NCBI GenBank assembly: GCA_025454875.1
Contig: JALONP010000008.1
Coordinates: 38,616-102,615, forward strand
From: Bacteroidia bacterium
GTDB taxonomy: Bacteria; Bacteroidota; Bacteroidia; UKL13-3
Length of the DNA: 64,000 bases
Reading direction: 5' to 3'
The position numbers and the translations under genes are program-made. Position 1 is the stretch's first letter; the number at the start of each line of letters is the position of its first letter. Shown in pieces: positions 6,401-29,657 of the stretch. Below the pieces are notes generated by a model, which saw nothing but the letters and a program-made list of their open reading frames with translations, was not told where the DNA came from and searched no databases.

Positions 6401-6450
6401 CAATAAACATTTAGATTGCACACAACAAATAACCTTAACAAAAACATCCT

Positions 6451-7422
6451 ATGGAATTAGTAGAAGAACCAAACAACAAACACAACAACCAAATTGAATT
6501 TGACGGACAAGGATTTGATTTATTTGGCATCTTGATTTTAAACTGGCTTTTAACGTTGGTAACATTGGGGTTGTATTACCCTTGGGCAAGGGTAAATTTA
6601 TTGCGTTTTTATTATGGCAATACATCCCTTAACAATACCTCATTTGTATTTGAAGGTAACGGACTCGAGTTGTTTAAAGGATTTATTCGGGTGTTTGCCC
6701 TTTTTGTTGGACTCTATGTATTGTTTATTTATGGAAACCTCACTCAGAATATTCCATTGATGCTCTCAGGTGCGGCATTGTTGGCCATTTGTTTTATTGC
6801 TGCTATACCATTTGCCTTGCATGGTGCAATGAAGTACAGGTTGGGTAGAACTTCGTGGAGGGGCATTTATTTTGGGTATCGTGGCAATCGAAACGAATTG
6901 TTGTACCGCACGTACACTGGATTGTTGCTCACCATTATCACACTTGGTATTTATTTTCCATGGATGGTAAACGACTTAAGGGTATATATAATCAGCAATA
7001 TGCGTTTTGGTAACCTAAGATTACGTTACCATGGCAAAGGATCGGAGTTGTTCATCATCTACTTAAAGGCATTTTTCTTAATGCCAATTACACTTGGGTT
7101 GTATAGTTTTTGGTTTCAAAAAGAATATTACAACTACCTTATCGAGTACACTTCCATTGAACAAGAGGGACAATCGCATTTATTGGGCAGTGAAATTTCG
7201 GGCATTGAATTACTCGAATTGGGATTTACTAATTTTTTCCTCGTAATCATTACCCTAGGTATTGGTGCACCTTGGGCGCAAATACGCAGAATAACCTATT
7301 TGATTAACCGAATTCAAATACCTGAAACGGTTAATTTTGATACCGTGCAACAAACTGAAGATGAATACAAGGATGCCACTGGTGAAGATTTATTAGACTT
7401 CTTAGATATAGGAATTGTTTAA
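6451..7422 (+). CDS. DUF898 (YjgN-like) multi-pass membrane protein.
   Basis: Repeated 'LGLYYPWA / LGIYFPWM / LGIGAPWA' membrane motifs typical of DUF898. Confidence 0.6.
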   Translation: MELVEEPNNKHNNQIEFDGQGFDLFGILILNWLLTLVTLGLYYPWARVNLLRFYYGNTSLNNTSFVFEGNGLELFKGFIRVFALFVGLYVLFIYGNLTQNIPLMLSGAALLAICFIAAIPFALHGAMKYRLGRTSWRGIYFGYRGNRNELLYRTYTGLLLTIITLGIYFPWMVNDLRVYIISNMRFGNLRLRYHGKGSELFIIYLKAFFLMPITLGLYSFWFQKEYYNYLIEYTSIEQEGQSHLLGSEISGIELLELGFTNFFLVIITLGIGAPWAQIRRITYLINRIQIPETVNFDTVQQTEDEYKDATGEDLLDFLDIGIV

Positions 7423-8509
7423 CATGGAACGTGCATACAAGGGTAGGTATTATGATGGGCTACAATCAACAGCCATTGTTGTATCGGTTTTTATTACCAA
7501 CACTACTTTAAACATTCAATACCAAGATGCAGATGAACAAACTGTGTTGATTGAATGGCCCAAAGAGGGCATCCAAAAAGTATCTCTCGCTTCTACACAT
7601 ATTGCACTTAAATACGGCAAAGAATATCCATACCAACAAGTTGAGTTAACCGATATTGATTTTATTGCCGCTTACCAAGATTGGACCGGTGGACAATTGA
7701 TGCAGCGTTGGTTGCAGATGAGTTCCACTACAATGGTATTGGCGCTATTGGCAGGCATTGTGGCCGTAATGGTGGGTTTGTATTTATGGGGTGTACCATG
7801 GATTGCTGATAAGGTCGCCCAACAAGTTCCTGTGGAATATGAAGTTGATTTAGGCAAAAGTATTGCAAGCCAAATTACCACAAACAAAACAATTGATAGT
7901 AACAGAACGGAAGCGATTAACCATTTTTTTGAGCAGCTTAAACTTGAAACAACTTACCCTGTTGCCATCACCGTTATTAAGAGTCCGGTAGTAAATGCAT
8001 TTGCATTGCCCGGTGGACAAATTGTAGTGTACGACTCGATGTTGGTTACCTTGCAAAAACCAGAAGAACTTGCTGCATTGTTGTGCCACGAGTTTGCCCA
8101 TGTGCAACTGAAACATTCAACTCGAAATATTTTTAGAACATTATCAGGATATTTATTTGTATCGGCATTGTTTGGCGATTTCAGCGGAATTTCTGCAGTA
8201 ATTATTGGCAATGCCAACGAGTTGCGCAATTTAAGTTACAGCCGCGAACTTGAGTCGGAAGCCGATGGATTTGCATTGGCACATCTCAAAAAACAACGTA
8301 TCGATATCAAGGGCATGATTGGGTTGTTTGAAAAATTGCAACAATCACAAACGGTAACCGTATCGGAATGGATGAGTACACATCCTGATTTATCAAACCG
8401 TATTCAAAAAGCAACCTATTACCAGCAAAACAATCCGTACACTGTTATTACAAACGACAGTATGCAATTTTATTTTAACCAATTGCAGCAATCCAATGAG
8501 TGGCAATAA
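7415..8509 (+). CDS. M48-family zinc metallopeptidase (membrane-anchored).
   Basis: HEFAH zinc-binding motif (LCHEFAHVQLKHS) and a downstream E; N-terminal TM segment. Overlaps the DUF898 stop by 8 bp. Confidence 0.75.
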   Translation: MFNMERAYKGRYYDGLQSTAIVVSVFITNTTLNIQYQDADEQTVLIEWPKEGIQKVSLASTHIALKYGKEYPYQQVELTDIDFIAAYQDWTGGQLMQRWLQMSSTTMVLALLAGIVAVMVGLYLWGVPWIADKVAQQVPVEYEVDLGKSIASQITTNKTIDSNRTEAINHFFEQLKLETTYPVAITVIKSPVVNAFALPGGQIVVYDSMLVTLQKPEELAALLCHEFAHVQLKHSTRNIFRTLSGYLFVSALFGDFSGISAVIIGNANELRNLSYSRELESEADGFALAHLKKQRIDIKGMIGLFEKLQQSQTVTVSEWMSTHPDLSNRIQKATYYQQNNPYTVITNDSMQFYFNQLQQSNEWQ

Positions 8510-16800: not shown

Positions 16801-19014
16801 ATGAACCACGTTCCACACCTTATTTCTGATTTGGCGCTCATTTTATTGGCGGCTGCGTTTGTAACCTTACTGTTTAAATGGCTTAAGCAGCCGGTAGTGC
16901 TAGGTTATATTATTGCCGGATTGTTAGTGAGTCCGAACTTTACCTTGTTTCCAAGTGTGACCGAACTCAAAAGCATTCAGATTTGGGCCGAGATTGGTGT
17001 TATTTTTATGCTGTTCAGCTTGGGCTTGGAGTTTAGTTTTAAAAAACTACTTAAGGTTGGCAGCACAGCAACCATTACAGGTTTGTTCGAAATTACCTGT
17101 ATGTTGTTACTGGGTTTTGGGGTTGGCCAAGCATTGGCATGGAGCAAAATAGACAGCCTTTTTTTAGGAGGCATCATTGCCATTTCATCTACAACCATCA
17201 TCTTCAGAGCGTTTGACGAACTCAATATCAAAACCAACAAATTTGCAAGTTTGGTAATTGGCGTTTTGGTAATAGAAGACCTTGTTGCAGTATTGTTGTT
17301 GGTGCTTTTGTCAACAGTGGCGGTTAGTCCAACTGTTGAGGGTAGTGAGTTGGTAGGTTCTATTGTAAAGCTGCTTTTCTTTTTGGTGTTGTGGTTTATT
17401 TCAGGAATCTTTTTGTTGCCTACTTTCCTAAAAAAGGCAAGCAGGCTCATGAGTGACGAAACAACCTTAATTGTTGCAATTGGTTTGTGTTTAGGAATGG
17501 TATTGCTTGCAGCGGGTGTTGGTTTTTCAGCAGCATTAGGCGCCTTTATTATGGGCAGCTTGCTTGCCGAAACAACACATGCCGAACGCATTGAGCATGT
17601 ATTTAAACCAGTAAAAGATTTATTCGGGGCCATCTTCTTTGTATCGGTTGGAATGCTCATTAACCCCGAGGTGCTTTATGCCCATATTGGTCCTGTGCTT
17701 GCCATTACATTGGCTGTGGTTTTGGGTAAATTATTGTTTGTTACCATTGGCGCTTTGTTAAGTGGCCAACCTTTAAACCACGCCATACAAGCAGGAACAA
17801 GCATGGCCCAAATTGGCGAATTCTCTTTTATCATTGCTACCCTCGGACTTACCTTGGGTGTTACAGGTTCGTTTTTGTACCCCATCGCAGTTGGTGTTTC
17901 TGTAATTACCACTTTTGCTACACCGTACATGATTAAACTTGCCGATCCTCTTTACAACTGGCTGGTTAAACATTTACCGCAAAGGTGGACCAACTCCTTA
18001 AACCGCTACAGTGCAGGAACCCAACAAATAAAAGCTGAATCGGATTGGAAAGTGGTGTTCACTGCATTTACCCAAGTAATGGTTATAAACAGTGTGCTCA
18101 TTGTTGCCATCATTCTCATTTTTAAAAATGTGATTGAACCCGTATTTTGGATATCGGGGTCGGTTGGCAGTTTTGTAGTTGCCTTGTTAGCACTAGCAGC
18201 CATATCACCTTTTTGGTGGATGCTCACAGCTAAAAAAATCAATAAGCCCTCGTATACCCAATTGTGGCTTAACAAAAACAACCGAGGCCCCATTATCATG
18301 CTCGAAATTTTGCGCGTAAGCATTGGCATCATTCTCATTGGGGTATTGTTTGTACAGTTTTTTTCAACGGCCATTGCGTTTAGTCTTGCTGCAGGCATTA
18401 TGCTCATTGTTGGTTTTGTGTTTTCGCGCAAGCTGCATGCTTTTACCTTGCGCATCGAAAAACGTTTTTACCACAATTTGTATTTGCGCGAGTCGATGCA
18501 ACCCAAATCGGTGGTGTCGCATTTATTGCCTTGGGATGCACATTTGGCTTATGTAGATATTGAACCCAACTCTGATTGGCTTGGCAAACCTTTAGGTGCC
18601 TTGCAACTGCGCGAGCAATACGGTATTAATATTGCCATGATAGAGCGCGGAAACCAAACCTTGATGGTTCCAGGAAAAACGGAGCGCTTGTATCCGTACG
18701 ACCGCATTGCCTTAATTGGAACCGATGAACAAATTACCCAGTTTAAAGAAGCCCTGGCTGCAACTGCAGTGCCTCAAACCCAAACGCTTGCTGTTTCGGC
18801 AGTGGCATTGGTGCAGTTTAAAGTAAATCCGGGTTTTGTGTACTTGGGTAAAAGCATACGCGAAAGTGCCCTACGCGAACGGTCGCAAGGATTGGTTGTG
18901 GGCATTGAGCGCAACGGACAGCGGTATTTAAACCCCGAATCTACTTGGGTATTTGAGTTGGATGATGTGGTGTGGATTGTGGGCGATGAATCTAAAATAA
19001 AAGCGCTGTACTAA
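16801..19014 (+). CDS. CPA2-family monovalent cation:proton antiporter with C-terminal RCK/TrkA-C domains.
   Basis: About 12 TM helices, then two soluble TrkA-C-like domains; 737 aa. Confidence 0.75.
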   Translation: MNHVPHLISDLALILLAAAFVTLLFKWLKQPVVLGYIIAGLLVSPNFTLFPSVTELKSIQIWAEIGVIFMLFSLGLEFSFKKLLKVGSTATITGLFEITCMLLLGFGVGQALAWSKIDSLFLGGIIAISSTTIIFRAFDELNIKTNKFASLVIGVLVIEDLVAVLLLVLLSTVAVSPTVEGSELVGSIVKLLFFLVLWFISGIFLLPTFLKKASRLMSDETTLIVAIGLCLGMVLLAAGVGFSAALGAFIMGSLLAETTHAERIEHVFKPVKDLFGAIFFVSVGMLINPEVLYAHIGPVLAITLAVVLGKLLFVTIGALLSGQPLNHAIQAGTSMAQIGEFSFIIATLGLTLGVTGSFLYPIAVGVSVITTFATPYMIKLADPLYNWLVKHLPQRWTNSLNRYSAGTQQIKAESDWKVVFTAFTQVMVINSVLIVAIILIFKNVIEPVFWISGSVGSFVVALLALAAISPFWWMLTAKKINKPSYTQLWLNKNNRGPIIMLEILRVSIGIILIGVLFVQFFSTAIAFSLAAGIMLIVGFVFSRKLHAFTLRIEKRFYHNLYLRESMQPKSVVSHLLPWDAHLAYVDIEPNSDWLGKPLGALQLREQYGINIAMIERGNQTLMVPGKTERLYPYDRIALIGTDEQITQFKEALAATAVPQTQTLAVSAVALVQFKVNPGFVYLGKSIRESALRERSQGLVVGIERNGQRYLNPESTWVFELDDVVWIVGDESKIKALY

Positions 19015-19838
19015 ACACGGTAAATGCCATCGGGAGCGAGGCGAACCTGCTTGTTTTTGTAAAGCATGCCTATGGTCATCTTAAAGGTTTTTTTGCTCAT
19101 GCCAAATACTTGGTATATGGTTTCGGCATCGGTTTTATCGTGGTAAGGTAAAAAGCCATTTGCTTTTTCGAGCGCGTTTACAATTTTATCAGCTTCGGTT
19201 TCGGTGCGTTTGTAACCTGGCTTGCCCAACATCAAATCTATTTTGTGATCGTCTTTTATCTTTTTCACAAACGCAGTGAACTGCTCCCCTATTTCCAATT
19301 TTTTAAATACCTCATTGTAATGCAAAAGGCCAAGGTGTTTGGTATTGATGATGCACAAATAACCCAAATCTGTTTTGCGTAATACCATTGCCTTTACCAC
19401 TTCCAACTCTTTTACGGTAAGTGTTTCGTTCGAAAAATCATCATCAATTAACTCGGTTGCCGCAATGCGGTCGCTAAGCAAATCGTGTATGATTTTAACA
19501 ACCACGGTATCGCCCACTTCAGTATCAAACAATTGTTGGGGCAAGGGCAAAAACAAATCTTTTTTTAAACCCCAATCTAAAAATGCACCATCTTGGTTCA
19601 CTTCGCGTACTGTTAAGGCAACATAATCGCCCACTTGACCCTTGGGTTTAAGGGTGGTTACCGTACGTTGGCGGTTGGCATCGAGGTATACAAATACTTG
19701 CACATAACTGCCCACTTCGGTTTTGGGAGGGGCAAATTTTTGGTCAATGAGCACACCATCGGCACCATCATCGAGCATCAAATGCATTTTGGTTTTACCA
19801 ATAACTTTGAGGTTGTGAAATTTACCGAGTGCCAACAT
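19011..19838 (-). CDS. S1 RNA-binding domain protein (CvfB/YitL family).
   Basis: Tandem S1-like domains plus a C-terminal winged-helix-like region, about 275 aa as in CvfB. Confidence 0.6.
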   Translation of the reverse strand: MLALGKFHNLKVIGKTKMHLMLDDGADGVLIDQKFAPPKTEVGSYVQVFVYLDANRQRTVTTLKPKGQVGDYVALTVREVNQDGAFLDWGLKKDLFLPLPQQLFDTEVGDTVVVKIIHDLLSDRIAATELIDDDFSNETLTVKELEVVKAMVLRKTDLGYLCIINTKHLGLLHYNEVFKKLEIGEQFTAFVKKIKDDHKIDLMLGKPGYKRTETEADKIVNALEKANGFLPYHDKTDAETIYQVFGMSKKTFKMTIGMLYKNKQVRLAPDGIYRV

Positions 19839-20183: not shown

Positions 20184-21707
20184 TTAAGCTTGTTCACTTT
20201 CATTCTGAGGTTGTCTTAGTTTATAATAAATTTCCAAACTTTCAATTAATGCATCTTTAAGCTGCAATCCATTGTTAAATCGAAGTTGTTGCCAGTGTCG
20301 AAGATTAAATCCTACACTTGCATCTGTTTTTGCATCTGGCTGATTACGCATTAGTAAAATAAAATTCTCTTGCTCATACCCCTTTGCTCTATTCAGCCCC
20401 ATTAAAAAGCCCACTTCATGATAAACATTTATGTTTTTTGTACTGAGATCAGCAATAAGCAACCCGGTATTATTAATCAATTCGAGTATTTCATCTGATA
20501 TGGTATAGGCATGGCCTTTATTCACCTCATCAATACGAATATGCTTTATTTTCAAATCAAGGTTGTGTCTACGGTTTGCCTCAGCTATTGCTTCCTCAAT
20601 GGCCTGCTTTACTTCTTTAGATGCTTCATCAAACTGCATAGAGATAAATACATTGCGTGACCGTGCCTTTAGAATTGTATCGTATACTACAATTAAGTCA
20701 TTGGCTGTAATATCAGCAATCGTGTAAATGTGGTTATAGAGTACCCAGTTTTTGAACGACTTCCTGAAATCACCATGCTGTAAGTTCAACTCGTAATAAA
20801 CAAATGCACTAAATAAAGCAGGGCTATTACATTCTTTCAAAACAGCATGTTGTTGATAGATTACATTGACATTATTAACAGCCTGCATTACTTTATTTAT
20901 TTCTGCATCATTGTTCTGGATAATCTTCTTTTGCAGCAATAACTTGAACAGTTCCAAAAGCACTGTACGCTTTATAATTACTTCTTCACCATTATCCTTC
21001 CATGTTTTGAACGATTCAGAAATTGCCTGTAATACTTCTAAATCAACTCTGTCCTTTACTTTTCTTGCAAAATAAAAATGAGGGCCAAAAGATGGATTAT
21101 TCTTTAATTTTTCATCAGTGAATATGTCTACTTCATCCAATATCAACCTTAAATTTTCTTCCGATGTAAGCGGTACAGACTTACTATTAATGTTATGGAA
21201 AATCACTCTTTTATACTCTTCACTTTGGGGTGTATCTGGAAAGAGAATTAAACAAAAGGGTGTCATATAATCATTAAACTCTGCCGCTTCAGGAGCTGCA
21301 CTCAGTCGGTGGTTTCCATCTATTCTGAAAAAAGGCTTATTTGTTTTCAACCAACCTTCTGGTATGTCAATAATTACTTTGTGTACCCCAGATTGAGTGG
21401 ATTTAATGCTAAAAGAATCCACATTCGATTTAAATGTTTTTCGGTCAAGAATATTCTTTAGCGGGTCAATGCCGGAAAGCCCTTTTGTAAAATCATATTT
21501 GAGGTTGTATGACAGTATTACCTCAGGAAAGAATAGATACTCTTTATCTTTTAAAAAGTTTACGATTGCTTCCCGTTGTTCGTCAATTAAGTTACGCTGA
21601 TAGCTAAGATCAGCTTCAGAACTTCTTGCTAAATCACCCATTGGGGCAAAGCCCCGAACGCAGGTGAAACCGCCTAAGGATTGTGATAATATGCCTTCTA
21701 ATCTCAT
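20184..21707 (-). CDS. DndB-like DGQHR-domain (ParB/Srx-fold) protein fused to a C-terminal nucleoside-2-deoxyribosyltransferase/SLOG-like Rossmann domain.
   Basis: The N-terminus matches the DGQHR family pattern: QRNLIDEQREAIVNFL...FFPEVILS, then FFRIDGNHRLSAA. The last ~150 aa follow the NDT-like pattern NVFISMQFDEASKE...LLIADLS..NINVYHEVGFLMGL. Confidence 0.6.
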   Translation of the reverse strand: MRLEGILSQSLGGFTCVRGFAPMGDLARSSEADLSYQRNLIDEQREAIVNFLKDKEYLFFPEVILSYNLKYDFTKGLSGIDPLKNILDRKTFKSNVDSFSIKSTQSGVHKVIIDIPEGWLKTNKPFFRIDGNHRLSAAPEAAEFNDYMTPFCLILFPDTPQSEEYKRVIFHNINSKSVPLTSEENLRLILDEVDIFTDEKLKNNPSFGPHFYFARKVKDRVDLEVLQAISESFKTWKDNGEEVIIKRTVLLELFKLLLQKKIIQNNDAEINKVMQAVNNVNVIYQQHAVLKECNSPALFSAFVYYELNLQHGDFRKSFKNWVLYNHIYTIADITANDLIVVYDTILKARSRNVFISMQFDEASKEVKQAIEEAIAEANRRHNLDLKIKHIRIDEVNKGHAYTISDEILELINNTGLLIADLSTKNINVYHEVGFLMGLNRAKGYEQENFILLMRNQPDAKTDASVGFNLRHWQQLRFNNGLQLKDALIESLEIYYKLRQPQNESEQA

Positions 21708-21712
21708 ACTTG

Positions 21713-22549
21713 CTATTTTATGATTTCACTCATTATTTCAAATTTCTCAAGCAATGTTTCTACAAACTGCTGCTTGGTAATGAAATACTTTTTGTATTTA
21801 CTTTCTAATGCTTTGCTGTAAGTAACATTAATGCGATAGTACTCTTTACCATTTGCCTTAACTGTTGTTGACATTTCAATAACTTTTGCCGAAGGCATAA
21901 ACAAAATGTGTTCGCCAATTTCAGCCTTATCAGGATCATAGGCGATGCCTACCAAATAAAAAGCATGATGTGCCCGGAAAGTGTTCTTGCCTATACTTAA
22001 AATAAGCTGGTCTGCTTTTTTTACCTGAAACCTTGATTTTACCTGTAAGTATATTGGGAGAAAAACTCCTTCTTTCAAGATAATTAAATCTATTCCCCTA
22101 GTATCTATGACAGGTCGGTACACATTTAATAACCCCTGGCTATTGAGCAAAATAATTTCTTTCACTCTGTCTTCAGCTATATTGCCTTTGGCCTGACTTG
22201 ACAAACCTGAAATATCTACGAGTGTTTCGTCTTCTTCTTCCTCCGCATCTTCAATTGATGGGGCAGCAGTCTTTGAAATAGTAATCAACTGCTGTGTTAC
22301 ATTTACTGACACTACATCACCCGGCTTTAATTTGTTACGCTTGTAAAATGTAGTAAGGCCAAATATGCGGTAATGATCTGCATTGTAATTTTTTGAAGCT
22401 ACTTGCTTCTCATCATAAAGTTTCACCTGCACCTGTGCAGTTTCATTAGGTAAGAGATCTCGTACCTGAGCCGGTACGTAAATAAACCCAAGACGGGTTT
22501 CTACCTCTATCAACTTTCGCTGGTATGTTATGGTTTGGGTATCTTTCAT
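21713..22549 (-). CDS. Small predicted nuclease: N-terminal B3-like (EcoRII-N/BfiI-like) DNA-binding pseudobarrel plus C-terminal PD-(D/E)xK nuclease core.
   Basis: N-terminal region LGFIYVPAQVRDLLP...YRIFGLTTFYKRNKLKPGDVVSV looks B3-like. C-terminal ...IDTRGIDLIIL...YLQVKSR fits a D-x(n)-(E/Q)xK core. The start overlaps the S-gene stop by ATGA. Confidence 0.5.
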   Translation of the reverse strand: MKDTQTITYQRKLIEVETRLGFIYVPAQVRDLLPNETAQVQVKLYDEKQVASKNYNADHYRIFGLTTFYKRNKLKPGDVVSVNVTQQLITISKTAAPSIEDAEEEEDETLVDISGLSSQAKGNIAEDRVKEIILLNSQGLLNVYRPVIDTRGIDLIILKEGVFLPIYLQVKSRFQVKKADQLILSIGKNTFRAHHAFYLVGIAYDPDKAEIGEHILFMPSAKVIEMSTTVKANGKEYYRINVTYSKALESKYKKYFITKQQFVETLLEKFEIMSEIIK

Positions 22550-23955
22550 GATGCTGTATTTAAAATCAGTTTTTCAATTTCCTTTTTGGCAGCTTCAAAA
22601 TCCATTTTCGCTTGTACCAAAAGTTGATGAGCTTCTTCTGTTCTCACTCTTACTTCCTTGGCAATCATTTGCTGAACCGATAGTGGTGGGGAAGGAATAA
22701 GTAAATGCTTTACATCATCCGGAGACAAATGCCCATTTGTAGCACCGGTTACATTACGTTTGATTTCAATTTGCGATGGTTTGCACCGTAAAAAAGCATA
22801 CACAAAATAAGGATCGAACTTGCTTTTATCGGTTAGAAACTTTACGATATCACCCCCTAAATAATATTTGCCAGGATATGACCAGTAACCCACCTTACCG
22901 ATAGTAGCTCCGGTGATTACTACCAAAATATCATCTTGCTTTAGTTCCTGATAAGCATTGAACACATCTTTTGCAGTTAATAGATTATCAAGGTCAATTG
23001 TGCCATCCATATTAATGGAGTTAATCTGCACAACTTTATTATCTCCTTCTTTTTCCTCCTGCTTTGGTAAATAGCCTTTCACTAAAAGGCCGGATAATAT
23101 TTGCTTCAGAAACACTGCACCATAATTCCCTTTTGCTATTGATTCCTTTACATCGTAGAAATAGGTTTTATTAAAAAATGGATCAAACCTATTACCCGAA
23201 ACTTTGGTAAAGGAGGTATTGAATGTTCGGTTTTCAATTGTATTTGCAGGTTCTGGTGGTAAGGAAATACCCAACTCATTCAAAAGGTAATCATCAATAC
23301 CATCTAACAGCTTTGCCGATTGATGTTCAGTAGACTTTCTTTGTATTCTTGCTTCAGTATAAAGTTTAGCAATTCGCTCTTGTTCATCAATTGGTGGTAC
23401 TGGGATTTTAAGAGCCCTTACTTCCTGTGCATTGACATTAGTCATTCCTGCTATTTGACGACTAACTGCATCAATTTGCATTCTGCCAATACTTGAGTTT
23501 ATAAAAAATGAAACATATTCAGGTAGCAACTTTGAATTATCCAATTCTACTCGAATAAAGTATGAAGCAAAAACCCAATCGCCATCTTCATGAAAAACAG
23601 CACATTTACCAACAAGCTCCTTAGAGTTTGTTCTGTTGAAAAGAATATCTCCTTTTCTGACTTTGTAACGTTTAAATTCTATCTCATCAAACTGAATGTA
23701 TTTCAAATCGTTTAATCTCCATTCCTCATCTTGCAGGTTTAGCATCCGAAGCATCGGATAGCCTCCATTTTCTTTGCTTGCAAGCGAAGAAGAGCCATAT
23801 TGTAGGCGTAAAATTGCTTTGCCTAAACGCTCAATCTTGTAAGGCGATTTCTCAATGGTTTTTAGAAACTTCTCATAAAGTAAATGGTAATTGGGATCCC
23901 ATCTAATAATTCCAAGCTCGCCCCGATTAAGTAAGAAATACTTATCTACACTCAA
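22546..23955 (-). CDS. hsdS: Restriction-modification specificity (S) subunit with two target-recognition domains.
   Basis: Two TRDs, each followed by a conserved helical spacer (IPVPPIDEQERIA / LIPSPPLSVQQMIA); 469 aa. Confidence 0.85.
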   Translation of the reverse strand: MSVDKYFLLNRGELGIIRWDPNYHLLYEKFLKTIEKSPYKIERLGKAILRLQYGSSSLASKENGGYPMLRMLNLQDEEWRLNDLKYIQFDEIEFKRYKVRKGDILFNRTNSKELVGKCAVFHEDGDWVFASYFIRVELDNSKLLPEYVSFFINSSIGRMQIDAVSRQIAGMTNVNAQEVRALKIPVPPIDEQERIAKLYTEARIQRKSTEHQSAKLLDGIDDYLLNELGISLPPEPANTIENRTFNTSFTKVSGNRFDPFFNKTYFYDVKESIAKGNYGAVFLKQILSGLLVKGYLPKQEEKEGDNKVVQINSINMDGTIDLDNLLTAKDVFNAYQELKQDDILVVITGATIGKVGYWSYPGKYYLGGDIVKFLTDKSKFDPYFVYAFLRCKPSQIEIKRNVTGATNGHLSPDDVKHLLIPSPPLSVQQMIAKEVRVRTEEAHQLLVQAKMDFEAAKKEIEKLILNTAS

Positions 23956-23963
23956 ATCGGGGC

Positions 23964-26171
23964 TTAGACGAAAAAACGATCTTGGCCTTGAATTACTTGC
24001 TCGATGAAAACCTTTAACTGGTCCGCAGCAGTTTCCAATTCATTAATGCCTGATTTTCTCCCGACAGCATCATAGCCAATATTCTCAGCAATCACCATCA
24101 GTATTGGGTAATTGGTTACTTCATCGGCTATTAGCTTCAGATATTCATCTTGCAGATTCTCTTTAATTTCATTTATCTGCTCATTGTACAATTGTGTGAT
24201 GTCGGCCTTCCATGCTTTAAACTCTTCCGTTTTCTCTGCTACTTTTTTACCCTTAGCACCCCATTGGGTGGGTGGAGCAGCTCCATCCAATACAGCAACA
24301 TTTTCGGCCAATTCCCAATTAATGGCATTGTAATCAAAACCCTTATGCTCTTTGAGTACCTGTTTCTTTTCTTCATCAAGCCTTTTTATTTCATCGGCAA
24401 ATTGCGGCTGAACAAATAAGCGGTCTTGCAGCTTTTCCTTTGCATCAATGATTTTTTTAGATTCCTTATCAGACAGCTTTCTCAAGAAGAGAACAGAACT
24501 TTTTACACCAGCACCATTTGCAGTGAAAGCGGTTTGGGGCAGAGATACAACCGCTACAATACGGTAGTGCTCTTCTATCCAATCTCTAACATATTGGGAA
24601 CTGCTATTGGTTAGTATTCCATCAGGAATTACTACCGCCAAAAAGCCGCCCGGCTTTAAAAATCTGTGGCATTGCTCAATAAACAACACCTCTGTACTTT
24701 GGCTGGTACGAGTACCCAGCGTGTAGTTACTTTTCTGGCGTTTATCAATCCAGTTTACATCGGTAATACCCAGTTTATAATTTTTGAGGTATGCCTGTTC
24801 AGTTTGCTTGATGCTGCTACCAAAAGGCGGATTGGTAATGATGAAGTCAAAATTATTTCGTTGAAAACCTTTGTTTCCAGTACGTTCAGCAATCACTTCA
24901 GGATCGTACAAACCATCAATCGCCACAACATTCGTATGACCATCATCGTGAATAATCATGTTCATTTTGGCGGTACGTGCTATGCCTTCAGAAATCTCTA
25001 TTCCATAGAGATTGTTTTCAGCAAAGTCGTGCCAGTATTTGTGGTGTTGTACAGAGCCCTTCTTGAAGTAACCTTCTTCTGCTTTTTTATCGGCTTGCTT
25101 TCTTACCTTATCCAATGCATAGAGCAAGAAACCACCAGAGCCGCAGGACGTATCTAATACAAGACTGTCATTTTCTATCGGCAATACCTTCACAATAAAA
25201 TCAACTACTTCCCGAGGAGTAAAATATTGACCAAAATCACCCCTGAAAAATGAACCAAGGAATGTTTCAAAAGCCCGGCCTTTGCTATCGAGGTCTGTAT
25301 CGTGCAGGTTAAGTTCTGCTAAATACCCAACTATTGTTTTTAGTTCATTTGCTGATAACCTGATTGGTTCTTTAAATACTTCGGGATCTTTCTTTTTGCC
25401 CTCCTCATATATTCCCTGAATACGTTTTAACAATTCATCGGGATGTTCACCAGTGTATTCCTGGAAGTCGTATGGCTGTCCTGATTTTCGGGGTTTACGT
25501 TCATCCCAAATTTTACAAAAGATGAGTTTATCAAGTTCGTCAAATGCTTCAGATGGATTACGCTTTCCACCAGCCCAAAGTGCCTGATGGGCTTGTTCAA
25601 AAACTTTGGTCAAATCGCTTTGCTCTACAATCTTTATATCCCTTGCAGGATTTCCAACTTCATCCCTACCACCCTTGTAAAACTTGGCAAGTGTAATGCC
25701 TGTTTGCCCAAATCTGGGAATATCAGCAATGATGTTTTGTACCCGTTCTAATGTCGGATAGTTTTTTACATCATAAGATTTTGTTTTAATGCCAGATGTT
25801 ATCTGAACGAAACGAGCACCCAAAGCAACAGCATTGCCAAAGCCTTGCTCAATTGCCTGATTGAACTCTGCTTCTGATATTTTTTGCTTTTTGCATTCTA
25901 TAACGATGTAAGGCTTCTTCTTTTCATCATCCTCAAAAACGACAATATCCGCCAAATCGCTTGGAGTTCTTTTGGGTACAATAAATTCCAAACTGATTCG
26001 CTGTGGTTTATACCCGTATTCGATTATCAAGGACAGATAAGTCTCTGCTCTCACTTGCTCTTCAGGGTCAGAGAAACGATACCGCTTGCCCTGTGCCTGA
26101 TAGATTATGTATTTGTCATCATCTTCAAACGAAACGTGACCGAGTTCAATGCCTTTACCTATTATATTCAT
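23964..26171 (-). CDS. N6-adenine DNA methyltransferase (gamma class, HsdM-like) with an N-terminal HsdR-N-like PD-(D/E)xK nuclease domain. Architecture is BcgI-A-like (Type IIB) or a Type I M subunit without a separate R.
   Basis: MTase motifs: motif I-like LVLDTSCGSGGFL and motif IV NPPFG. N-terminal ~190 aa match HSDR_N-like: ETYLSLIIEYGY...ADIVVFEDD...YIVIECKK (E...D...ExK). I chose the start at the internal Met (MNIIGKG) to avoid a 44-bp overlap with abiEii; the ORF could extend to 26225. Confidence 0.8.
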   Translation of the reverse strand: MNIIGKGIELGHVSFEDDDKYIIYQAQGKRYRFSDPEEQVRAETYLSLIIEYGYKPQRISLEFIVPKRTPSDLADIVVFEDDEKKKPYIVIECKKQKISEAEFNQAIEQGFGNAVALGARFVQITSGIKTKSYDVKNYPTLERVQNIIADIPRFGQTGITLAKFYKGGRDEVGNPARDIKIVEQSDLTKVFEQAHQALWAGGKRNPSEAFDELDKLIFCKIWDERKPRKSGQPYDFQEYTGEHPDELLKRIQGIYEEGKKKDPEVFKEPIRLSANELKTIVGYLAELNLHDTDLDSKGRAFETFLGSFFRGDFGQYFTPREVVDFIVKVLPIENDSLVLDTSCGSGGFLLYALDKVRKQADKKAEEGYFKKGSVQHHKYWHDFAENNLYGIEISEGIARTAKMNMIIHDDGHTNVVAIDGLYDPEVIAERTGNKGFQRNNFDFIITNPPFGSSIKQTEQAYLKNYKLGITDVNWIDKRQKSNYTLGTRTSQSTEVLFIEQCHRFLKPGGFLAVVIPDGILTNSSSQYVRDWIEEHYRIVAVVSLPQTAFTANGAGVKSSVLFLRKLSDKESKKIIDAKEKLQDRLFVQPQFADEIKRLDEEKKQVLKEHKGFDYNAINWELAENVAVLDGAAPPTQWGAKGKKVAEKTEEFKAWKADITQLYNEQINEIKENLQDEYLKLIADEVTNYPILMVIAENIGYDAVGRKSGINELETAADQLKVFIEQVIQGQDRFFV

Positions 26172-26181
26172 GCCGATATTT

Positions 26182-27012
26182 TTATTGTTTTTTGAATTCT
26201 TTAAAGTCAATGGAAGTTTCCTCAATTTTCTCCAGCAACTCCGTTCGCACTAATTCAAAAGCGGTTGCCTGGTCGTATTTTTCTGTTGGACGTATGAGGG
26301 CTGCTATGTCTCCTATAAATTCATCGTCCTGCATTTTGGCCTCCATGTTTTGCAGATAAACCTTTTGCGTAGGTGGTTCATCTACCACAAAATCCATGTA
26401 GGCATGATAGCATTGCAACAGGGCGTCTTTATCCATGCCTGGCACTTGCACCAGTGCCTTGTACATGTCGTATAAATCACGGCCTTTTCTGCGTTGGTAT
26501 AAGGCCCTGAGTTTTGTACCCAGCAGTTCTTCCAATTGGTAAGTGGTGATGTTGCAGGCACCGGTAAACCATGAGGAATTTACCTGAAAGGGAAATTGCT
26601 GGTAGCCCAATACAGTGAAATGTTCCCGGCAATTGGTTTCTACTTTGAGGCGGAGGTTTTGCACCGGAGGGAACTCAGATTCAAAACGGTAATGCAGGGT
26701 AAAATTGTTTTCTTTCTGCTTGCGGGCAGGGTCACCTAAAAAGGCCAGCCTCTCTCGTAAACGGTCCACCACAGGGCCGAATGGTTCTGCGGTGATTTGA
26801 ACCAAATCAATATCCTCAGAATATCTGGGTTGAGGCTGTAAATACAATTTGTGCAAAGCCGTCCCCCCTCTGAATGCTAAACTTGATGCTAACCATTCAT
26901 CTGAAAAGATTTCTACCAAGGAACGACAAATCACCAGGTCTTGCTCCACCTGTTCGTTGGTTTGCCAGGGTACCTGACTGGCCCATTCTGTTATGTATGC
27001 CTGTGGTATCAT
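26182..27012 (-). CDS. abiEii: AbiEii/AbiGii-family nucleotidyltransferase toxin (type IV TA / abortive infection).
   Basis: Signature FRGGTALHKLYL ... RYSEDIDL (DUF1814 nucleotidyltransferase motif). Confidence 0.85.
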   Translation of the reverse strand: MIPQAYITEWASQVPWQTNEQVEQDLVICRSLVEIFSDEWLASSLAFRGGTALHKLYLQPQPRYSEDIDLVQITAEPFGPVVDRLRERLAFLGDPARKQKENNFTLHYRFESEFPPVQNLRLKVETNCREHFTVLGYQQFPFQVNSSWFTGACNITTYQLEELLGTKLRALYQRRKGRDLYDMYKALVQVPGMDKDALLQCYHAYMDFVVDEPPTQKVYLQNMEAKMQDDEFIGDIAALIRPTEKYDQATAFELVRTELLEKIEETSIDFKEFKKQ

Positions 27013-27064
27013 TCGTCAAGTTATCTCGGTCATTTTTATTTTTTATTGGTCTCGATGAATCGAC

Positions 27065-27979
27065 CTATAGGTCGATTTCAATTGTAGTGTTTACGATTAC
27101 TTTCCATCTTTCGTCTGATGCAAAACCTTTGGCCGGAGCTGAGGCTTTCAGCGGTATCCGAAACAAAGGGGCATTGTTATTTTGTAAGGCCATGTATAAG
27201 GCGTTAGCCAGCGGCTGGTTGTCAAATATTTTATCCAACAGATAGCCCAAACGCTGCAAGGCAGTTACCGGAACATGCTGCAGCAGATTGGCATTAAATG
27301 CGTTGGGTTGAATACTTTCGGCTAATTCAGCCAAAACGGTGGCCACCCTGTTGATGCCACCTACCCGTTTGGCGTACTGTATCAGATCGGTGGCGGTTAA
27401 GGCAGGGTTTGAAATTTTTAAGTATCCGGTCTCGGTTTTCCGGGTGTCTAACAGTGTTGCAGGTATTTCCTTTTTGCTGATGTAGTTCAGCTTCAGCCCT
27501 TTTTTCTGCATAGGTCGCAGCACGGGAAAGCCGGTAACCACAAAAAACTCCTGTGGCTGCTGGTGCGATGCTCCATGATAGGCGGCTGCGTTTAGTAAAG
27601 CCAGGTAATAAGGCCGGTCTAATTCCTTCATAAACGCATCTAAAAACAAGGTGGGGGGAAGGATTCCCTTTGACCTGTATTGGGGCGGTATAATGAGGTA
27701 ATACCCTTTATGGATGGAAATGATCTGCTCTTTATCTACCAGCCTTTTCAAGGCGAACTTATTGGCCGTATCTGACTGCCCGGGAAAATCGGCACGGAAC
27801 TGGTGCAGGGCAAAAGCATATTTACCCTTTGCCAGCAGGTGGTTTACCCAATCTTCTGCACTCTTATATTGCCTTGAATCTTCCAAGAGAGTAATTTTTT
27901 GCGAAAGGTAGTGAAAACTACTACCTTTTGCAAATGTTTTCTCTTTATTTTTTGCTTTGCTTATCATATAGAGTAGCAA
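27065..27979 (-). CDS. abiEi: AbiEi-family antitoxin/transcriptional regulator.
   Basis: Immediately upstream of abiEii on the same strand. About 300 aa with an N-terminal wHTH-like and C-terminal AbiEi-like region. Confidence 0.65.
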   Translation of the reverse strand: MLLYMISKAKNKEKTFAKGSSFHYLSQKITLLEDSRQYKSAEDWVNHLLAKGKYAFALHQFRADFPGQSDTANKFALKRLVDKEQIISIHKGYYLIIPPQYRSKGILPPTLFLDAFMKELDRPYYLALLNAAAYHGASHQQPQEFFVVTGFPVLRPMQKKGLKLNYISKKEIPATLLDTRKTETGYLKISNPALTATDLIQYAKRVGGINRVATVLAELAESIQPNAFNANLLQHVPVTALQRLGYLLDKIFDNQPLANALYMALQNNNAPLFRIPLKASAPAKGFASDERWKVIVNTTIEIDL

Positions 27980-28280: not shown

Positions 28281-29657
28281 TTACTTACCGATACAAAACT
28301 TACTAAAGATATTGCCCAACAAATCATCGGTGGTGATTTGCCCTGTGATTTCGCCCAGGTGGAAAATGGCTTTACGGATATCGAGCGCCAGTAACTCGCC
28401 ACTAAACCCATTCTGAATGGCATTAAGTACTTGCGTTAAGGCCTGATACGACAACTGAAACGACTCGTAATGCCGCGTATTGGTTACCACCAAGTTATTG
28501 CTGCTTTGGTTGTATGCAGTAAACTGTTGGAGCGCTTGCAGCAATTGCTCCATGCCTTGTTTATGCAATGATGAAATGGGAATAACCTGCTGCCCGTTTG
28601 CAGCTGCTGTGTTTCCTAAATCAATTTTATTGGCCACCAACAATAAGGTGTAATTGCCTTTAGGCAGTTGGGCCAACTCCTCGTTTAATTGGTTTTGGGT
28701 GGTATTGCTTGCATCAAACACGTACAGCACCAGTGCTGCTTTTTCAATGGCTTCGTACGTACGCTCAATGCCAATGGCCTCAATGGTATCGGCTCCTTTG
28801 CGTATACCTGCTGTATCAATTAACCTAAACACAATGCCATTCACCACAAAGGTTTCTTCGATGGTATCGCGTGTGGTGCCTGCAATATTGCTTACAATGG
28901 CGCGTTCCTCGTTTAACAATGCATTAAGCAAGGTAGATTTACCTGCATTGGGCTTACCTGCAATAACAGTAGGCACTCCATTTTTAACCACATTGCCGTA
29001 CTGAAACGATTGCAACAGCTGTTCTAACAATTGGTGTATTTGGGTTACCAATGCATGCAGTTCGGTTTTACTTGCAAAGGCAACATCTTCTTCGGCAAAA
29101 TCGAGTTCGAGTTCAATAAGCGAAGCAAAGTTAATCAGTTGCTCACGTAGGTGCTCAATTTGTTTAGAGTAACCGCCTCGCATCTGTTGCATGGCTGTTT
29201 GGTGTGCCGCTGCACTCTCGGCAGCAATTACATCGGCAACGGCTTCGGCTTGGGCCAAGTCCATTTTTTTGTTTAAAAATGCACGCAGGGTAAACTCGCC
29301 CGGCTTTGCCAAGCGCATTCCAGAGCGCACTAGCAACTCCAATACTTTTTGCAAAATATAGGTTGATCCGTGGCAACTAATTTCTACCGAATCTTCGCCC
29401 GTAAACGAAGTTGGGTTGCGAAACACACTCACCAATACTTCATCTAACAGAATATTGCCATCTTTAATTTTACCAAAATGAACCGTATGTGATGCGGCTG
29501 CTTCGAGGTTTTTGCCTGCAAACAATTGGTTAACGATGGCAATGGATTGTGGCCCACTGATGCGGATAACACCAATTGCTCCAACACCACTTGGGGTGGC
29601 CAGGGCGCAAATGGTATCCGACAAATCGGTATGAGGAAAATGGTTCATGCGCGGCAA
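28281..29657 (-). CDS. mnmE: tRNA modification GTPase MnmE (TrmE).
   Basis: G-domain motifs GKPNAGKSTLLNAL, DTAG; C-terminal CIGK. Confidence 0.95.
   Translation of the reverse strand: MPRMNHFPHTDLSDTICALATPSGVGAIGVIRISGPQSIAIVNQLFAGKNLEAAASHTVHFGKIKDGNILLDEVLVSVFRNPTSFTGEDSVEISCHGSTYILQKVLELLVRSGMRLAKPGEFTLRAFLNKKMDLAQAEAVADVIAAESAAAHQTAMQQMRGGYSKQIEHLREQLINFASLIELELDFAEEDVAFASKTELHALVTQIHQLLEQLLQSFQYGNVVKNGVPTVIAGKPNAGKSTLLNALLNEERAIVSNIAGTTRDTIEETFVVNGIVFRLIDTAGIRKGADTIEAIGIERTYEAIEKAALVLYVFDASNTTQNQLNEELAQLPKGNYTLLLVANKIDLGNTAAANGQQVIPISSLHKQGMEQLLQALQQFTAYNQSSNNLVVTNTRHYESFQLSYQALTQVLNAIQNGFSGELLALDIRKAIFHLGEITGQITTDDLLGNIFSKFCIGK

Follow-up and report, generated by a model that had tools for sequence, protein, structure and literature searches.

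Which protein, if any, cuts DNA for a methylase locus that has M and S genes and lacks an HsdR? The window analysed here, a stretch of DNA of 64 kb, contains no HsdR-sized open reading frame, and a small gene on the minus strand begins within the last codons of its S gene. The initial annotation suggested that the 278-residue product of this gene, here X278, may be a cleavage component recruited by the M/S complex or coordinated with it, standing in for HsdR, with an independent EcoRII-like effector as the fallback. The open reading frame and its ATGA coupling to the S gene were confirmed from the sequence, the open reading frame list giving an ATG start and the plus strand reading TCAT at 22546-22549, that is, ATGA on the coding strand. 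All four peptides quoted for the protein were found (FIYVPAQV at residue 22, YRIFGLTTFYKRNKLKPGDVVSV at residue 60, GIDLIIL at residue 152 and LQVKSR at residue 168). X278 has 175 homologues at E ≤ 1e-3, nearly all of 268-280 residues (90% clustering), and a search with the family profile matched 511 representative clusters at 50% identity. Thus, X278 is a real gene. Its homologues, among the matches listed, were unnamed or called only "hypothetical protein".

No model in Pfam, NCBIfam or PADLOC covers the X278 family, and X278 itself matched nothing above threshold in these databases or in PHROGs. PDDEXK_5 (PF11645) scored 14 bits (E = 0.054) against a gathering cut-off of 26.1. The Pfam EcoRII-N, EcoRII-C, B3 and BfiI DNA-binding domains were absent at E ≤ 0.1, there was no Pfam match to Mrr_cat or to a ResIII/DEAD motor domain, and comparison with PDB chains, using the single sequence (phmmer) and the family profile, returned chance matches only. 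The AlphaFold model of X278 has two domains (pLDDT 83.9), and their placement relative to each other is uncertain (pTM 0.56). Residues 97-111, in the linker between them, have a pLDDT below 50. The linker is acidic, with Asp or Glu at 8 of the 15 residues of PSIEDAEEEEDETLV, and is the least conserved segment of the protein (mean pairwise identity of 26%).

Table 1 Features of X278 and its operon, in window coordinates.
Feature	Position	Strand	Basis or remark
X278, complete CDS, predicted B3 domain and PD-QxK nuclease, 278 aa and stop codon	21713..22549	-	ORF list, homologues, AlphaFold model
ATGA start/stop overlap, X278 ATG over TGA of the 469-aa S gene	22546..22549	-	sequence read directly
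B3-type DNA-binding pseudobarrel, residues 7-93	22271..22531	-	predicted fold, conservation
Interdomain linker, acidic, predicted disordered, residues 94-111	22217..22270	-	pLDDT, composition, conservation
Minimal PD-(D/E)xK nuclease domain, residues 112-278	21716..22216	-	predicted fold, invariant motif
Predicted catalytic E126	22172-22174	-	helix 1
Predicted catalytic D154	22088-22090	-	
Predicted catalytic Q169	22043-22045	-	
Predicted catalytic K171	22037-22039	-	
S subunit, 469 aa, two recognition domains	22546..23955	-	Pfam Methylase_S E=2e-22; PADLOC Specificity_I
M protein, N-terminal HSDR_N_2 nuclease and N6-adenine methyltransferase	23964..26225	-	Pfam
DGQHR-domain protein, 507 aa, third gene of the M/S type	20184..21707	-	NCBIfam TIGR03187 E=7e-8, below cut-off

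Plant transcription factors are the best-known users of B3 domains; among the restriction enzymes of bacteria, few are known to contain one. The N-terminus of X278 is predicted to form a seven-stranded open β-barrel with two short helices, like solved B3 domains, and it is this predicted fold, rather than any sequence-family match, that bears out the B3-like assignment of the initial annotation. The invariant residues of the domain are R11, E17, G21, F22, P34, Y55, R61, G64 and T66. From comparison of the model with the B3 domains described in PMC3973309, we infer that E17, G21 and F22 belong to a helix-strand unit equivalent to the N-arm and that Y55, N56 and R61 belong to a β4-β5 hairpin equivalent to the C-arm. 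The putative C-arm carries the motif YNADxxR, in which the Asn and Arg are invariant and the Asp is mostly conserved, reminiscent of the base-reading residues of BfiI-C and EcoRII-N (PMC3973309).

The C-terminal domain has a predicted α-β-β-β-α-β core, with the acidic residues and the lysine positioned on helix 1, strand 2 and strand 3. E126, D154, Q169 and K171 are invariant in 45 diverse homologues and, together with the predicted fold, uphold the earlier reading of this region as a PD-(D/E)xK nuclease with a D...QxK pattern. Both folds appear in the structure prediction, and X278 joins a B3-type pseudobarrel to a minimal PD-(D/E)xK nuclease with a complete E-D-QxK site. In structure comparison the nuclease matched the homing endonuclease I-Ssp6803I best and Holliday-junction resolvases next. 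With Gln at the place of the second acidic residue, catalysis could be weak or altered.

The same nuclease module is found alone, as tandem duplicates (nine representatives) and fused to HARE-HTH; all 12 of the tested relatives with a different N-terminus combine HARE-HTH with an X278-type nuclease. These relatives give weak signals for DUF4365, Mrr_cat_2 and PDDEXK_5 (20-25 bits for the latter). One B3-like domain is fused to a CAP12/Pycsar TIR domain. The surroundings of the HARE-HTH and B3-TIR relatives lay on short contigs and added little.

We then compared the genomic contexts of the family. Peptide patterns taken from its nuclease domain matched 50 loci among 185,579 species genomes; related genomic islands among these do not count as independent samples. 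The loci are scattered over Bacteroidota, Omnitrophota, Planctomycetota, Actinomycetota, Proteobacteria and archaea, a distribution typical of a horizontally moving defence gene. At least 34 of the 48 family loci from other genomes have a restriction-modification (R-M) gene within 10 kb. These R-M genes comprise 19 cases of HsdR, 7 of the HSDR_N_2-methyltransferase type and 5 of type III, plus fused or MmeI-like enzymes. In 19 of the 48 loci the X278 gene stands behind a complete type I system that includes HsdR; elsewhere it follows type III Mod/Res, fused R-M-S (IIG-like) enzymes or an MmeI-like enzyme. Three to four loci have no R-M gene within 10 kb, and intact orphan copies, in Sinomicrobium, Bacteroides and Chitinophagaceae loci, sit among housekeeping genes.

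X278 is co-oriented with the R-M operons that it follows, which fall into four or more unrelated classes, and is tightly packed there as the last or near-last gene. Of 36 co-directional cases, 23 have a gap of no more than 24 nt to the gene before it, and the upstream genes belong to more than 13 unrelated families, among them S, HsdR, YgjP peptidase, AbiV, RhuM, Roc-COR, pentapeptide, AAA_13 and HerA-like proteins. Since tight spacing holds whatever gene lies upstream, the ATGA overlap with S is not evidence of partnership. Orthologues that are 80-84% identical follow four different R-M classes. We sought a conserved small partner between the R-M genes and X278, and the intervening genes were heterogeneous (unknowns of 144-149 and 100 residues, YgjP peptidase, AbiV, an integron-cassette protein and a C92 amidase). 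Genes for pAgo proteins lie downstream in only five loci. A link to the long-B Argonaute nucleases was rejected, as bAgaN is larger and different and the nearby pAgos have their own helicase and 377-aa partners.

A near-identical operon (L001) shows how the locus changes. The first recognition domain (TRD1) of its S subunit has been exchanged relative to the window, while X278 is 96% identical between the two, with only 4 substitutions in its B3 domain. Since the DNA-reading surface is constant and the neighbour specificities vary, self-protection would not come from the adjacent methylase. On balance, we favour X278 as an autonomous two-domain restriction-type DNA endonuclease and not a subunit of the M/S methylase; of the two roles first proposed, the independent EcoRII-like effector is the better description. 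X278 is probably indifferent to the methylation of its neighbour. It is possibly modification-dependent, by analogy with type IV enzymes, with which the X278 loci share the lack of a constant methylase partner.

In the mechanism that we propose, X278 would be co-transcribed with whichever defence operon lies upstream. It would form a dimer or oligomer through its nuclease domain, as do Hjc, I-Ssp6803I and the SPARDA nuclease, and select DNA with the B3 domain via the conserved N-arm and C-arm residues. The B3 domain and acidic linker may restrain the nuclease until DNA is bound, as in EcoRII. The most likely logic would be that of a type IV/Mrr-like second-line nuclease, which would target DNA with a feature absent from the host, such as a modification, and would complement the R-M system, much as mrr lies beside hsdRMS in E. 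coli K-12. A bolder version, which we offer tentatively, is a new stand-alone restriction class in which the B3 domain reads a modification or a DNA end or structure made by infection and the enzyme serves as a universal backup at the tail of R-M operons. A fully autonomous model leaves unexplained why the gene lies so consistently 3' in R-M operons, a placement that suggests some functional synergy with R-M.

The tail position behind any type of R-M system would be accounted for if X278 were an abortive-infection or guard effector, that is, an auto-inhibited non-specific DNase acting through oligomerisation, like SPARDA or the long-B Argonaute nucleases. Its release would come once an anti-restriction protein blocks the defence encoded upstream, or on meeting the DNA ends or branched intermediates of infection. 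Hjc and the SPARDA DREN/DUF4365 domain, both similar to the X278 nuclease, work as oligomers or on DNA structures, and the linker, acidic and predicted to be disordered, could act as a DNA mimic that covers the surface of the B3 domain or of the nuclease. The gene also occupies a slot common to Abi-type R-M hitchhikers, namely AbiV, RhuM and an AAA_13 ATPase, the last presumably like the ATPases of PrrC/RloC-type anticodon nucleases. In EcbAgaN, a C-terminal PD-(D/E)xK domain is known to be autoinhibited by the N-terminal part of the protein (PMC13535254). However, X278 has no sensor domain aside from its DNA-binding fold, the intact orphans have no system to guard, and the invariance of the B3 arm residues points to a particular DNA ligand and away from non-specific binding. 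We therefore consider such a role unlikely.

X278 could also be a classical type II/IIE enzyme, with a B3 domain that reads a fixed short unmodified site and a neighbouring methyltransferase that protects the host. A methyltransferase is usually nearby, the domains are in the order of EcoRII, and the C-arm motif recalls the base-reading residues of BfiI-C and EcoRII-N (PMC3973309). Set against these likenesses, the neighbouring methyltransferases differ in class and their specificities change fast, whereas the B3 arms are invariant across phyla; the orphan loci have no adjacent methyltransferase, and the Pfam models for EcoRII-N, EcoRII-C and B3 do not match. Such an enzyme seems distinctly unlikely.

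This leaves the proposal with which the locus was first described, that X278 is the DNA-cleaving subunit recruited by M/S in place of the absent HsdR. Besides the lack of an HsdR-sized reading frame and the overlap with S, it can draw on the complete nuclease motif of X278 and on apparent co-transcription. No terminator-like site was found between the S and X278 genes on the minus strand, in a sigma-70 promoter and terminator scan that was uninformative, gave fewer sites than shuffled sequences and does not cover Bacteroidota promoters. In 19 loci, however, the family stands behind type I systems in which HsdR is present. X278 also follows type III and fused enzymes, exists as orphans, is tightly spaced to unrelated upstream genes, has no motor domain and, in related operons, is separated from S by other genes. 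The M protein, moreover, carries a nuclease domain of its own. Pfam assigns HSDR_N_2 (E = 1e-14) and N6_Mtase (E = 3e-37) to it, and the nuclease motif E...D...ExK is invariant in 10 of 10 homologues. These 10 homologues begin at the position of an internal ATG, so the true M start is likely, from sequence comparison, the ATG at 26171.

The constant partner of this M/S type is the downstream 507-aa DGQHR protein, whose gene starts 5 nt past the X278 stop. The protein has at least 1471 homologues, and profile search found no solved relative of its family. Two distant sampled loci (L059 and L060) have the trio of HSDR_N_2-methyltransferase, S and DGQHR without X278; in a third (L061) the DGQHR gene lies next to no more than a fragment of S and is followed by an Mrr_cat gene. 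S is the upstream neighbour of X278 and not its specific partner. With HsdR in 19 loci, orphan copies, a nuclease motif within M, a trio that occurs without X278 and a TRD1 swap that leaves the B3 domain nearly unchanged, the HsdR-replacement proposal is not supported and we regard it as very improbable. When an M/S pair lacks HsdR, a small nuclease encoded beside it is easily taken for its cutter. This locus corrects that inference, since here the methylase brings a nuclease domain of its own and its constant partner is another protein. Linked to the bolder version of the X278 proposal given above is the possibility that restriction at this locus is really the work of the trio of HSDR_N-methylase, S and 507-aa DGQHR protein.

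We also considered an assignment of the locus to MADS. The M and S proteins resemble MAD2 and MAD5, below cut-off (NCBIfam), and X278 and the 507-aa protein match no mad model in NCBIfam or PADLOC. MAD6, MAD7 and MAD8, mandatory in the model of the MADS authors (bioRxiv 10.1101/2023.03.30.534895), are missing, and the assignment was rejected.

Least probable of all is a role outside defence, whether as a selfish homing endonuclease that is free-standing and inserts at the ends of operons or as a protein with housekeeping duties in junction resolution or regulation: the structural matches to I-Ssp6803I and Holliday-junction resolvases, the tight insertion between unrelated genes and the orphans among housekeeping genes would fit, but k-mer sharing in the flanks of 39 loci revealed no common DNA word and hence no shared homing or attachment site, no copies were found in 50,697 phage and 72,556 plasmid records, the gene is free-standing in operons outside introns and inteins, its presence at so few loci is not that of a housekeeping gene, its neighbours are overwhelmingly defence genes, and controller proteins normally precede rather than trail R-M genes.

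X278 adds a conserved bacterial and archaeal family, outside the current Pfam, NCBIfam and PADLOC models, to the few B3 restriction enzymes, and connects its nuclease to the module of the uncharacterised HARE-HTH restriction nucleases. That its members lie, as a rule, at the tail of type I, type III and fused R-M systems suggests a nuclease with a general second-layer role. The family could yield a new DNA-reading specificity and possibly a tool enzyme. We know of no B3 domain that reads a modified base, and the characterised B3 restriction domains (EcoRII-N, BfiI-C, NgoAVII and UbaLAI) read unmodified sequences, which speaks against modification dependence; if X278 does target a modification, its B3 domain would be the first.

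HsdR has about 1000 residues and an SF2 translocase motor, whereas X278 has 278 residues and no motor. I-Ssp6803I, archaeal Hjc and the SPARDA DREN (DUF4365) nuclease all lack the B3 domain, and X278, unlike I-Ssp6803I and SPARDA, is neither in an intron nor fused to APAZ/Argonaute. The third catalytic position of X278 is Q, judged against the canonical PD-(D/E)xK motif, whereas that of Hjc is E. The long-B pAgo-associated bAgaN has 390 residues, a 220-aa N-domain and a D-EVK nuclease (PMC10620215, PMC13535254), compared with 278 residues, a B3 domain of about 90 residues and a D-QVK motif in X278.

Among the B3 restriction enzymes, the type IIE enzyme EcoRII shares the order of an N-terminal B3 domain and a C-terminal nuclease, but its EcoRII-type C-terminal catalytic domain is not found in X278. 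EcoRII-family enzymes have a cognate methyltransferase, whereas those near X278 are of several classes and changing specificity, and none lies beside the orphans. UbaLAI, BfiI and the NgoAVII/CglI R-proteins have the reverse order, with a C-terminal B3 domain. The BfiI nuclease is of the PLD type. The NgoAVII nuclease is also of the PLD type (PMC4267654), NgoAVII requires an ATPase partner (PMC4267654, PMC4267653), and UbaLAI is described as monomeric (PMC5766183).

Mrr and X278 each combine a small N-terminal DNA-binding domain with a C-terminal nuclease, and neither needs a cognate methylase, as far as gene context indicates for X278. The N-domain of Mrr is a winged helix and not a B3 domain. 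The E. coli Mrr motif, GID-x14-QAK, has the same variant and spacing as GID-x14-QVK in X278, and the Mrr catalytic domain has been termed "PD-QXK" (PMC11037411). In E. coli K-12 mrr adjoins hsdR, so that Mrr and X278 both adjoin a type I R-M operon. Membership of X278 in the Mrr family was rejected, with an hhalign probability of 1.7% against E. coli Mrr and only GID-x14-QxK in common.

By sequence profile, the closest relatives of X278 are the HARE-HTH restriction nucleases (about 250-275 residues, PF05066 plus PD-(D/E)xK), none of which, to our knowledge, has been characterised biochemically. The X278 family profile matches them with E values of 1e-14 to 1e-29 over profile positions of about 93-269, and their nuclease module is the same. 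They differ in the N-terminal reader, which is a winged-helix-like HARE-HTH and not a B3 pseudobarrel. HARE-HTH is mentioned as a proposed DNA-modification reader in a passage of PMC11037411 that cites Aravind and Iyer 2012. The HARE-HTH nucleases and X278 are of the same size and share one architecture, a small DNA-binding domain joined by a linker to the nuclease.

The 278-aa ORF described in the initial annotation (X278) is present on the minus strand and opens with an ATG. Its reported ATGA coupling to the S gene is also found, with TCAT on the plus strand at 22546-22549 and the ATG of X278 overlapping the TGA of the 469-aa S subunit, and the peptides quoted for it are located at residues 22, 60, 152 and 168. 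The gene belongs to a minus-strand array in the order AbiEi, AbiEii, methyltransferase, S, X278 and a 507-aa DGQHR protein. The array is flanked by two large ORFs without annotation (19011-19838 and 28281-29657), which are taken to be housekeeping genes. The G+C content is 34-38% over ~20.0-24 kb, spanning the 507-aa gene, X278 and S, compared with 42-45% in the flanks, consistent with a horizontally acquired island. The mechanical methylase ORF opens at a TTG (26225) and overlaps AbiEii; however, the starts of its homologues match an internal ATG at 26171, thus the true product is probably ~735 aa long. The AbiEi/AbiEii pair (26182-27979) sits immediately ahead of the methylase, co-oriented with it, and also occurs in L001, a locus from another genome.

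Features of the X278 array in the window
Feature	Position	Strand	Basis
AbiEi antitoxin	27065-27979	minus	ORF list + Pfam
AbiEii nucleotidyltransferase toxin	26182-27012	minus	ORF list + Pfam
Methyltransferase M, 753 aa as mechanical ORF	23964-26225	minus	ORF list + Pfam
S subunit, 469 aa	22546-23955	minus	ORF list + Pfam
X278 CDS, ATG start, 278 aa	21713-22549	minus	ORF list
507-aa DGQHR protein	20184-21707	minus	ORF list + Pfam

A search of 5.8 billion proteins returned 175 homologues of X278, nearly all of 268-280 aa. The 120 listed were all unnamed or "hypothetical protein", and none had a precomputed Pfam domain (0/120). The family profile matched 511 of 1.84 billion cluster representatives (E<=1e-3). 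The only family-scan match for X278 was a sub-threshold one to PDDEXK_5 (residues 118-181, E=0.054), scans of NCBIfam, PADLOC and PHROGs gave no match worth naming, and neither the sequence nor the profile matched PDB chains by sequence. The family is found in 50 of 185,579 species genomes, scattered across many phyla. Two gene copies, in L020 (9998-10823) and L044 (9989-10802), carry frameshifts that split the gene and probably represent pseudogenes.

We used AlphaFold2 to predict the structure of X278 from a 45-sequence alignment (mean pLDDT 83.9; pTM 0.56, leaving the domain arrangement uncertain). The model comprises a β-rich domain (residues 7-93), a disordered, acidic linker (97-111, D/E at 8 of 15 residues) and an α/β domain (118-277). 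The N-domain was most similar to BfiI-C (score 9.7), FUS3 (9.7), At1g16640 (9.5) and VRN1 (9.5), followed by LlaJI.R1-N (8.2), RAV1 (8.1), EcoRII-N (8.0), NgoAVII-B3 (6.5) and UbaLAI-B3 (6.0). Foldseek returned the same two sets of matches, together with the SPARDA nuclease domain. Glu126, Asp154, Gln169 and Lys171 are invariant in the alignment and lie on helix 1, the start of strand 2 and strand 3 of the model, the canonical PD-(D/E)xK positions. The proposed B3-like N-terminus and PD-(D/E)xK C-terminus with a D...QxK motif are thus both confirmed by the model and the invariant motif residues, and X278 belongs to the B3 pseudobarrel and PD-(D/E)xK superfamilies at the fold level only. Invariant residues of the N-domain cluster in a helix-strand unit (Glu17, Gly21, Phe22) and in the β4-β5 hairpin (Tyr55, Asn56, Arg61). 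In BfiI-C and EcoRII-N, bases are read by an N-arm and a C-arm (PMC3973309), to which we infer that these clusters correspond.

Comparison of the best 150 of the 511 representatives indicates that the nuclease domain occurs alone (~160 aa, some being fragments), as tandem duplicates (~340 aa, 9 clusters) or behind a different N-terminus. The duplicates argue for a dimer as the working unit. The alternative N-terminus of ~90 residues is a HARE-HTH domain in all 12 proteins tested, and these relatives show weak DUF4365, PDDEXK_5 and Mrr_cat_2 signals. Short Argonautes are associated with the DUF4365 nuclease domain (PMC10810196), in keeping with the SPARDA matches. The nuclease domain of X278 is a mobile module. 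The B3-like domain also occurs elsewhere, fused to a CAP12/Pycsar-type TIR domain in P0267 (L058, 8001-9221), where a second TIR protein adjoins the gene, and as a tandem pair in the 332-aa protein P0179.

Next, we compared 50 loci fetched from one-genome-per-species collections, with genes mapped by tblastn, ORF calling and clustering and key neighbours annotated with Pfam. Peptide patterns from the nuclease domain served to retrieve the loci, and related islands do not count as independent samples. At least 34 of the 48 family loci have a restriction-modification (R-M) gene within 10 kb of the homologue. Nineteen loci carry a type I system with a genuine HsdR, seven the HSDR_N_2-methylase type of the window, five type III Mod + Res, one a 1301-aa fused nuclease-methylase-S protein, and one an MmeI-like enzyme together with a large helicase. 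For example, L003/L051 have the order HsdM, HsdS, FRG, HsdR, a 149-aa protein and the homologue X277, and Aquimarina has M, S, R, a pentapeptide protein and the homologue X274. Intact homologues with no R-M nearby are found in Sinomicrobium, Bacteroides and Chitinophagaceae loci; the rest are mostly short contigs.

The initial annotation had suggested that X278 may be the cleavage component recruited by, or coordinated with, the M/S pair, in place of HsdR. The family, however, also trails HsdR-bearing type I systems, type III systems and fused enzymes, and includes orphan copies. The ATGA overlap is no evidence of a partnership with S. In 36 of 41 cases the gene upstream runs in the same direction, with a gap of <=24 nt in 23 of these 36 (six overlaps included), and the tightly spaced genes encode S, HsdR, a YgjP-like peptidase, AbiV, RhuM, a Roc-COR GTPase, an AAA_13 ATPase or a HerA-like ATPase. 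Close spacing is therefore a habit of the family, whatever gene precedes it. Moreover, orthologues 80-84% identical to one another stand behind four R-M classes. The L001 operon is nearly identical to that of the window (M 95%, X 96%, DGQHR 96%), but the first ~210 residues of S (8613-10004 in L001) are only 16-33% identical against 80-100% for the remainder: its first recognition domain has been swapped. Yet in X278 only 11 residues differ, of which just four are in the B3 domain. Finally, the window methylase has its own N-terminal HSDR_N_2 domain (Pfam), whose PEE...AD(I/L)V...E-x-K motif is invariant in 10/10 homologues, and a different partner. The DGQHR family is much larger than that of X278 (at least 1471 homologues). 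Two sampled distant members (L059, L060) lie directly behind an HSDR_N_2-methylase and S with no X278, and a third (L061) lies behind a 171-aa S fragment only, again with no X278 and with an Mrr_cat gene next. Thus, from contexts, spacing, partner switching, the S domain swap and the methylase's own nuclease and partner, the HsdR-replacement reading is not supported.

The HSDR_N_2-methylase, S and a ~505-540-aa protein form a recurring three-gene unit (window 20184-26225, L059, L060, L056). An RIDGNHRLS (DGQHR/ParB-like) motif is invariant in the third protein, and its C-terminal half (FISMxF ... LLIADL ... NVYHExG) is conserved. The 120 homologues listed are unnamed or "hypothetical", the family profile matched no PDB chain, and the window protein had no match in PADLOC. 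The actual restriction machinery at this locus may be this unit, which looks unstudied.

Other genes recur on these islands. An ORF of 144-149 aa lies upstream of the homologue in the loci nearest the window (L002 9546-9980, L004 9531-9980, L019 9551-9988, L003 9540-9989, L056 7807-8241), placed after S, after the DGQHR gene (L019) or after HsdR (L003). A weak AAA_22 match was obtained for one copy, and both the window and L001 lack the ORF. Piwi-domain Argonautes lie 1-3 genes downstream of the homologue in five loci (L003/L051, L014, L016, L018, L056), followed in L016 and L018 by ~575-aa and ~380-aa proteins, the former being, in the one copy scanned (L016), a UvrD-like helicase. Several Argonaute-bearing islands also have a PriCT_2/DUF3987 primase-like gene. 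The homologues of L014, L016 and L018 are 83-84% identical with different upstream R-M classes. In L027, a gene (6264-7541) in the defence array upstream of the homologue encodes a fusion of a PfkB kinase and a nucleoside 2-deoxyribosyltransferase domain.

The best-supported reading of X278, drawn from its predicted structure and its gene neighbourhoods, is an autonomous enzyme that combines a reader with a nuclease. It would be co-transcribed with whichever defence operon stands upstream, work as a dimer or oligomer, and have its target set by the B3 domain. Since the B3 arms are invariant while neighbour specificities vary, and orphans are intact, the adjacent methylase cannot be what protects host DNA. 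X278 could then be type IV-like, targeting a feature absent from the host; be autoinhibited like EcoRII, requiring several sites; or be released upon infection. We favour the type IV-like logic with modest confidence. We know of no B3 domain that reads a modification; the HARE-HTH domain has been proposed as such a reader (PMC11037411, citing Aravind and Iyer 2012). It is possible that X278 is an abortive-infection or guard effector, as its slot is common to AbiV, RhuM and the AAA_13 ATPase, its acidic linker could mask the DNA-binding surface, and EcbAgaN is a documented case of a PD-(D/E)xK domain autoinhibited by the N-terminal part of the protein (PMC13535254). X278 is unlikely to be a selfish homing endonuclease or a housekeeping resolvase, given that the flanks share no common DNA word across 39 loci, no copies were found in phage or plasmid collections, and so few species genomes, over many phyla, carry the gene.

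Comparison of X278 with known systems reveals that E. coli Mrr has the same motif variant and spacing (GID-x14-QAK, against GID-x14-QVK in X278), named "PD-QXK" (PMC11037411). X278 resembles Mrr in this motif, in having no cognate methylase and in its neighbourhood, as mrr adjoins hsdR in E. coli K-12. However, hhalign found no homology between the two, and X278 is not an Mrr member. The initial alternative of an independent EcoRII-like effector fits better than HsdR replacement: the contexts favour autonomy and the domain layout is EcoRII-like, but X278 is not an EcoRII member. It is most closely related to the uncharacterised HARE-HTH nucleases. To our knowledge, and in our searches, no characterised enzyme pairs a B3 domain with this Hjc/DREN-like nuclease. 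From fold and context, we rate X278 as a putative member of the B3-guided restriction nucleases.
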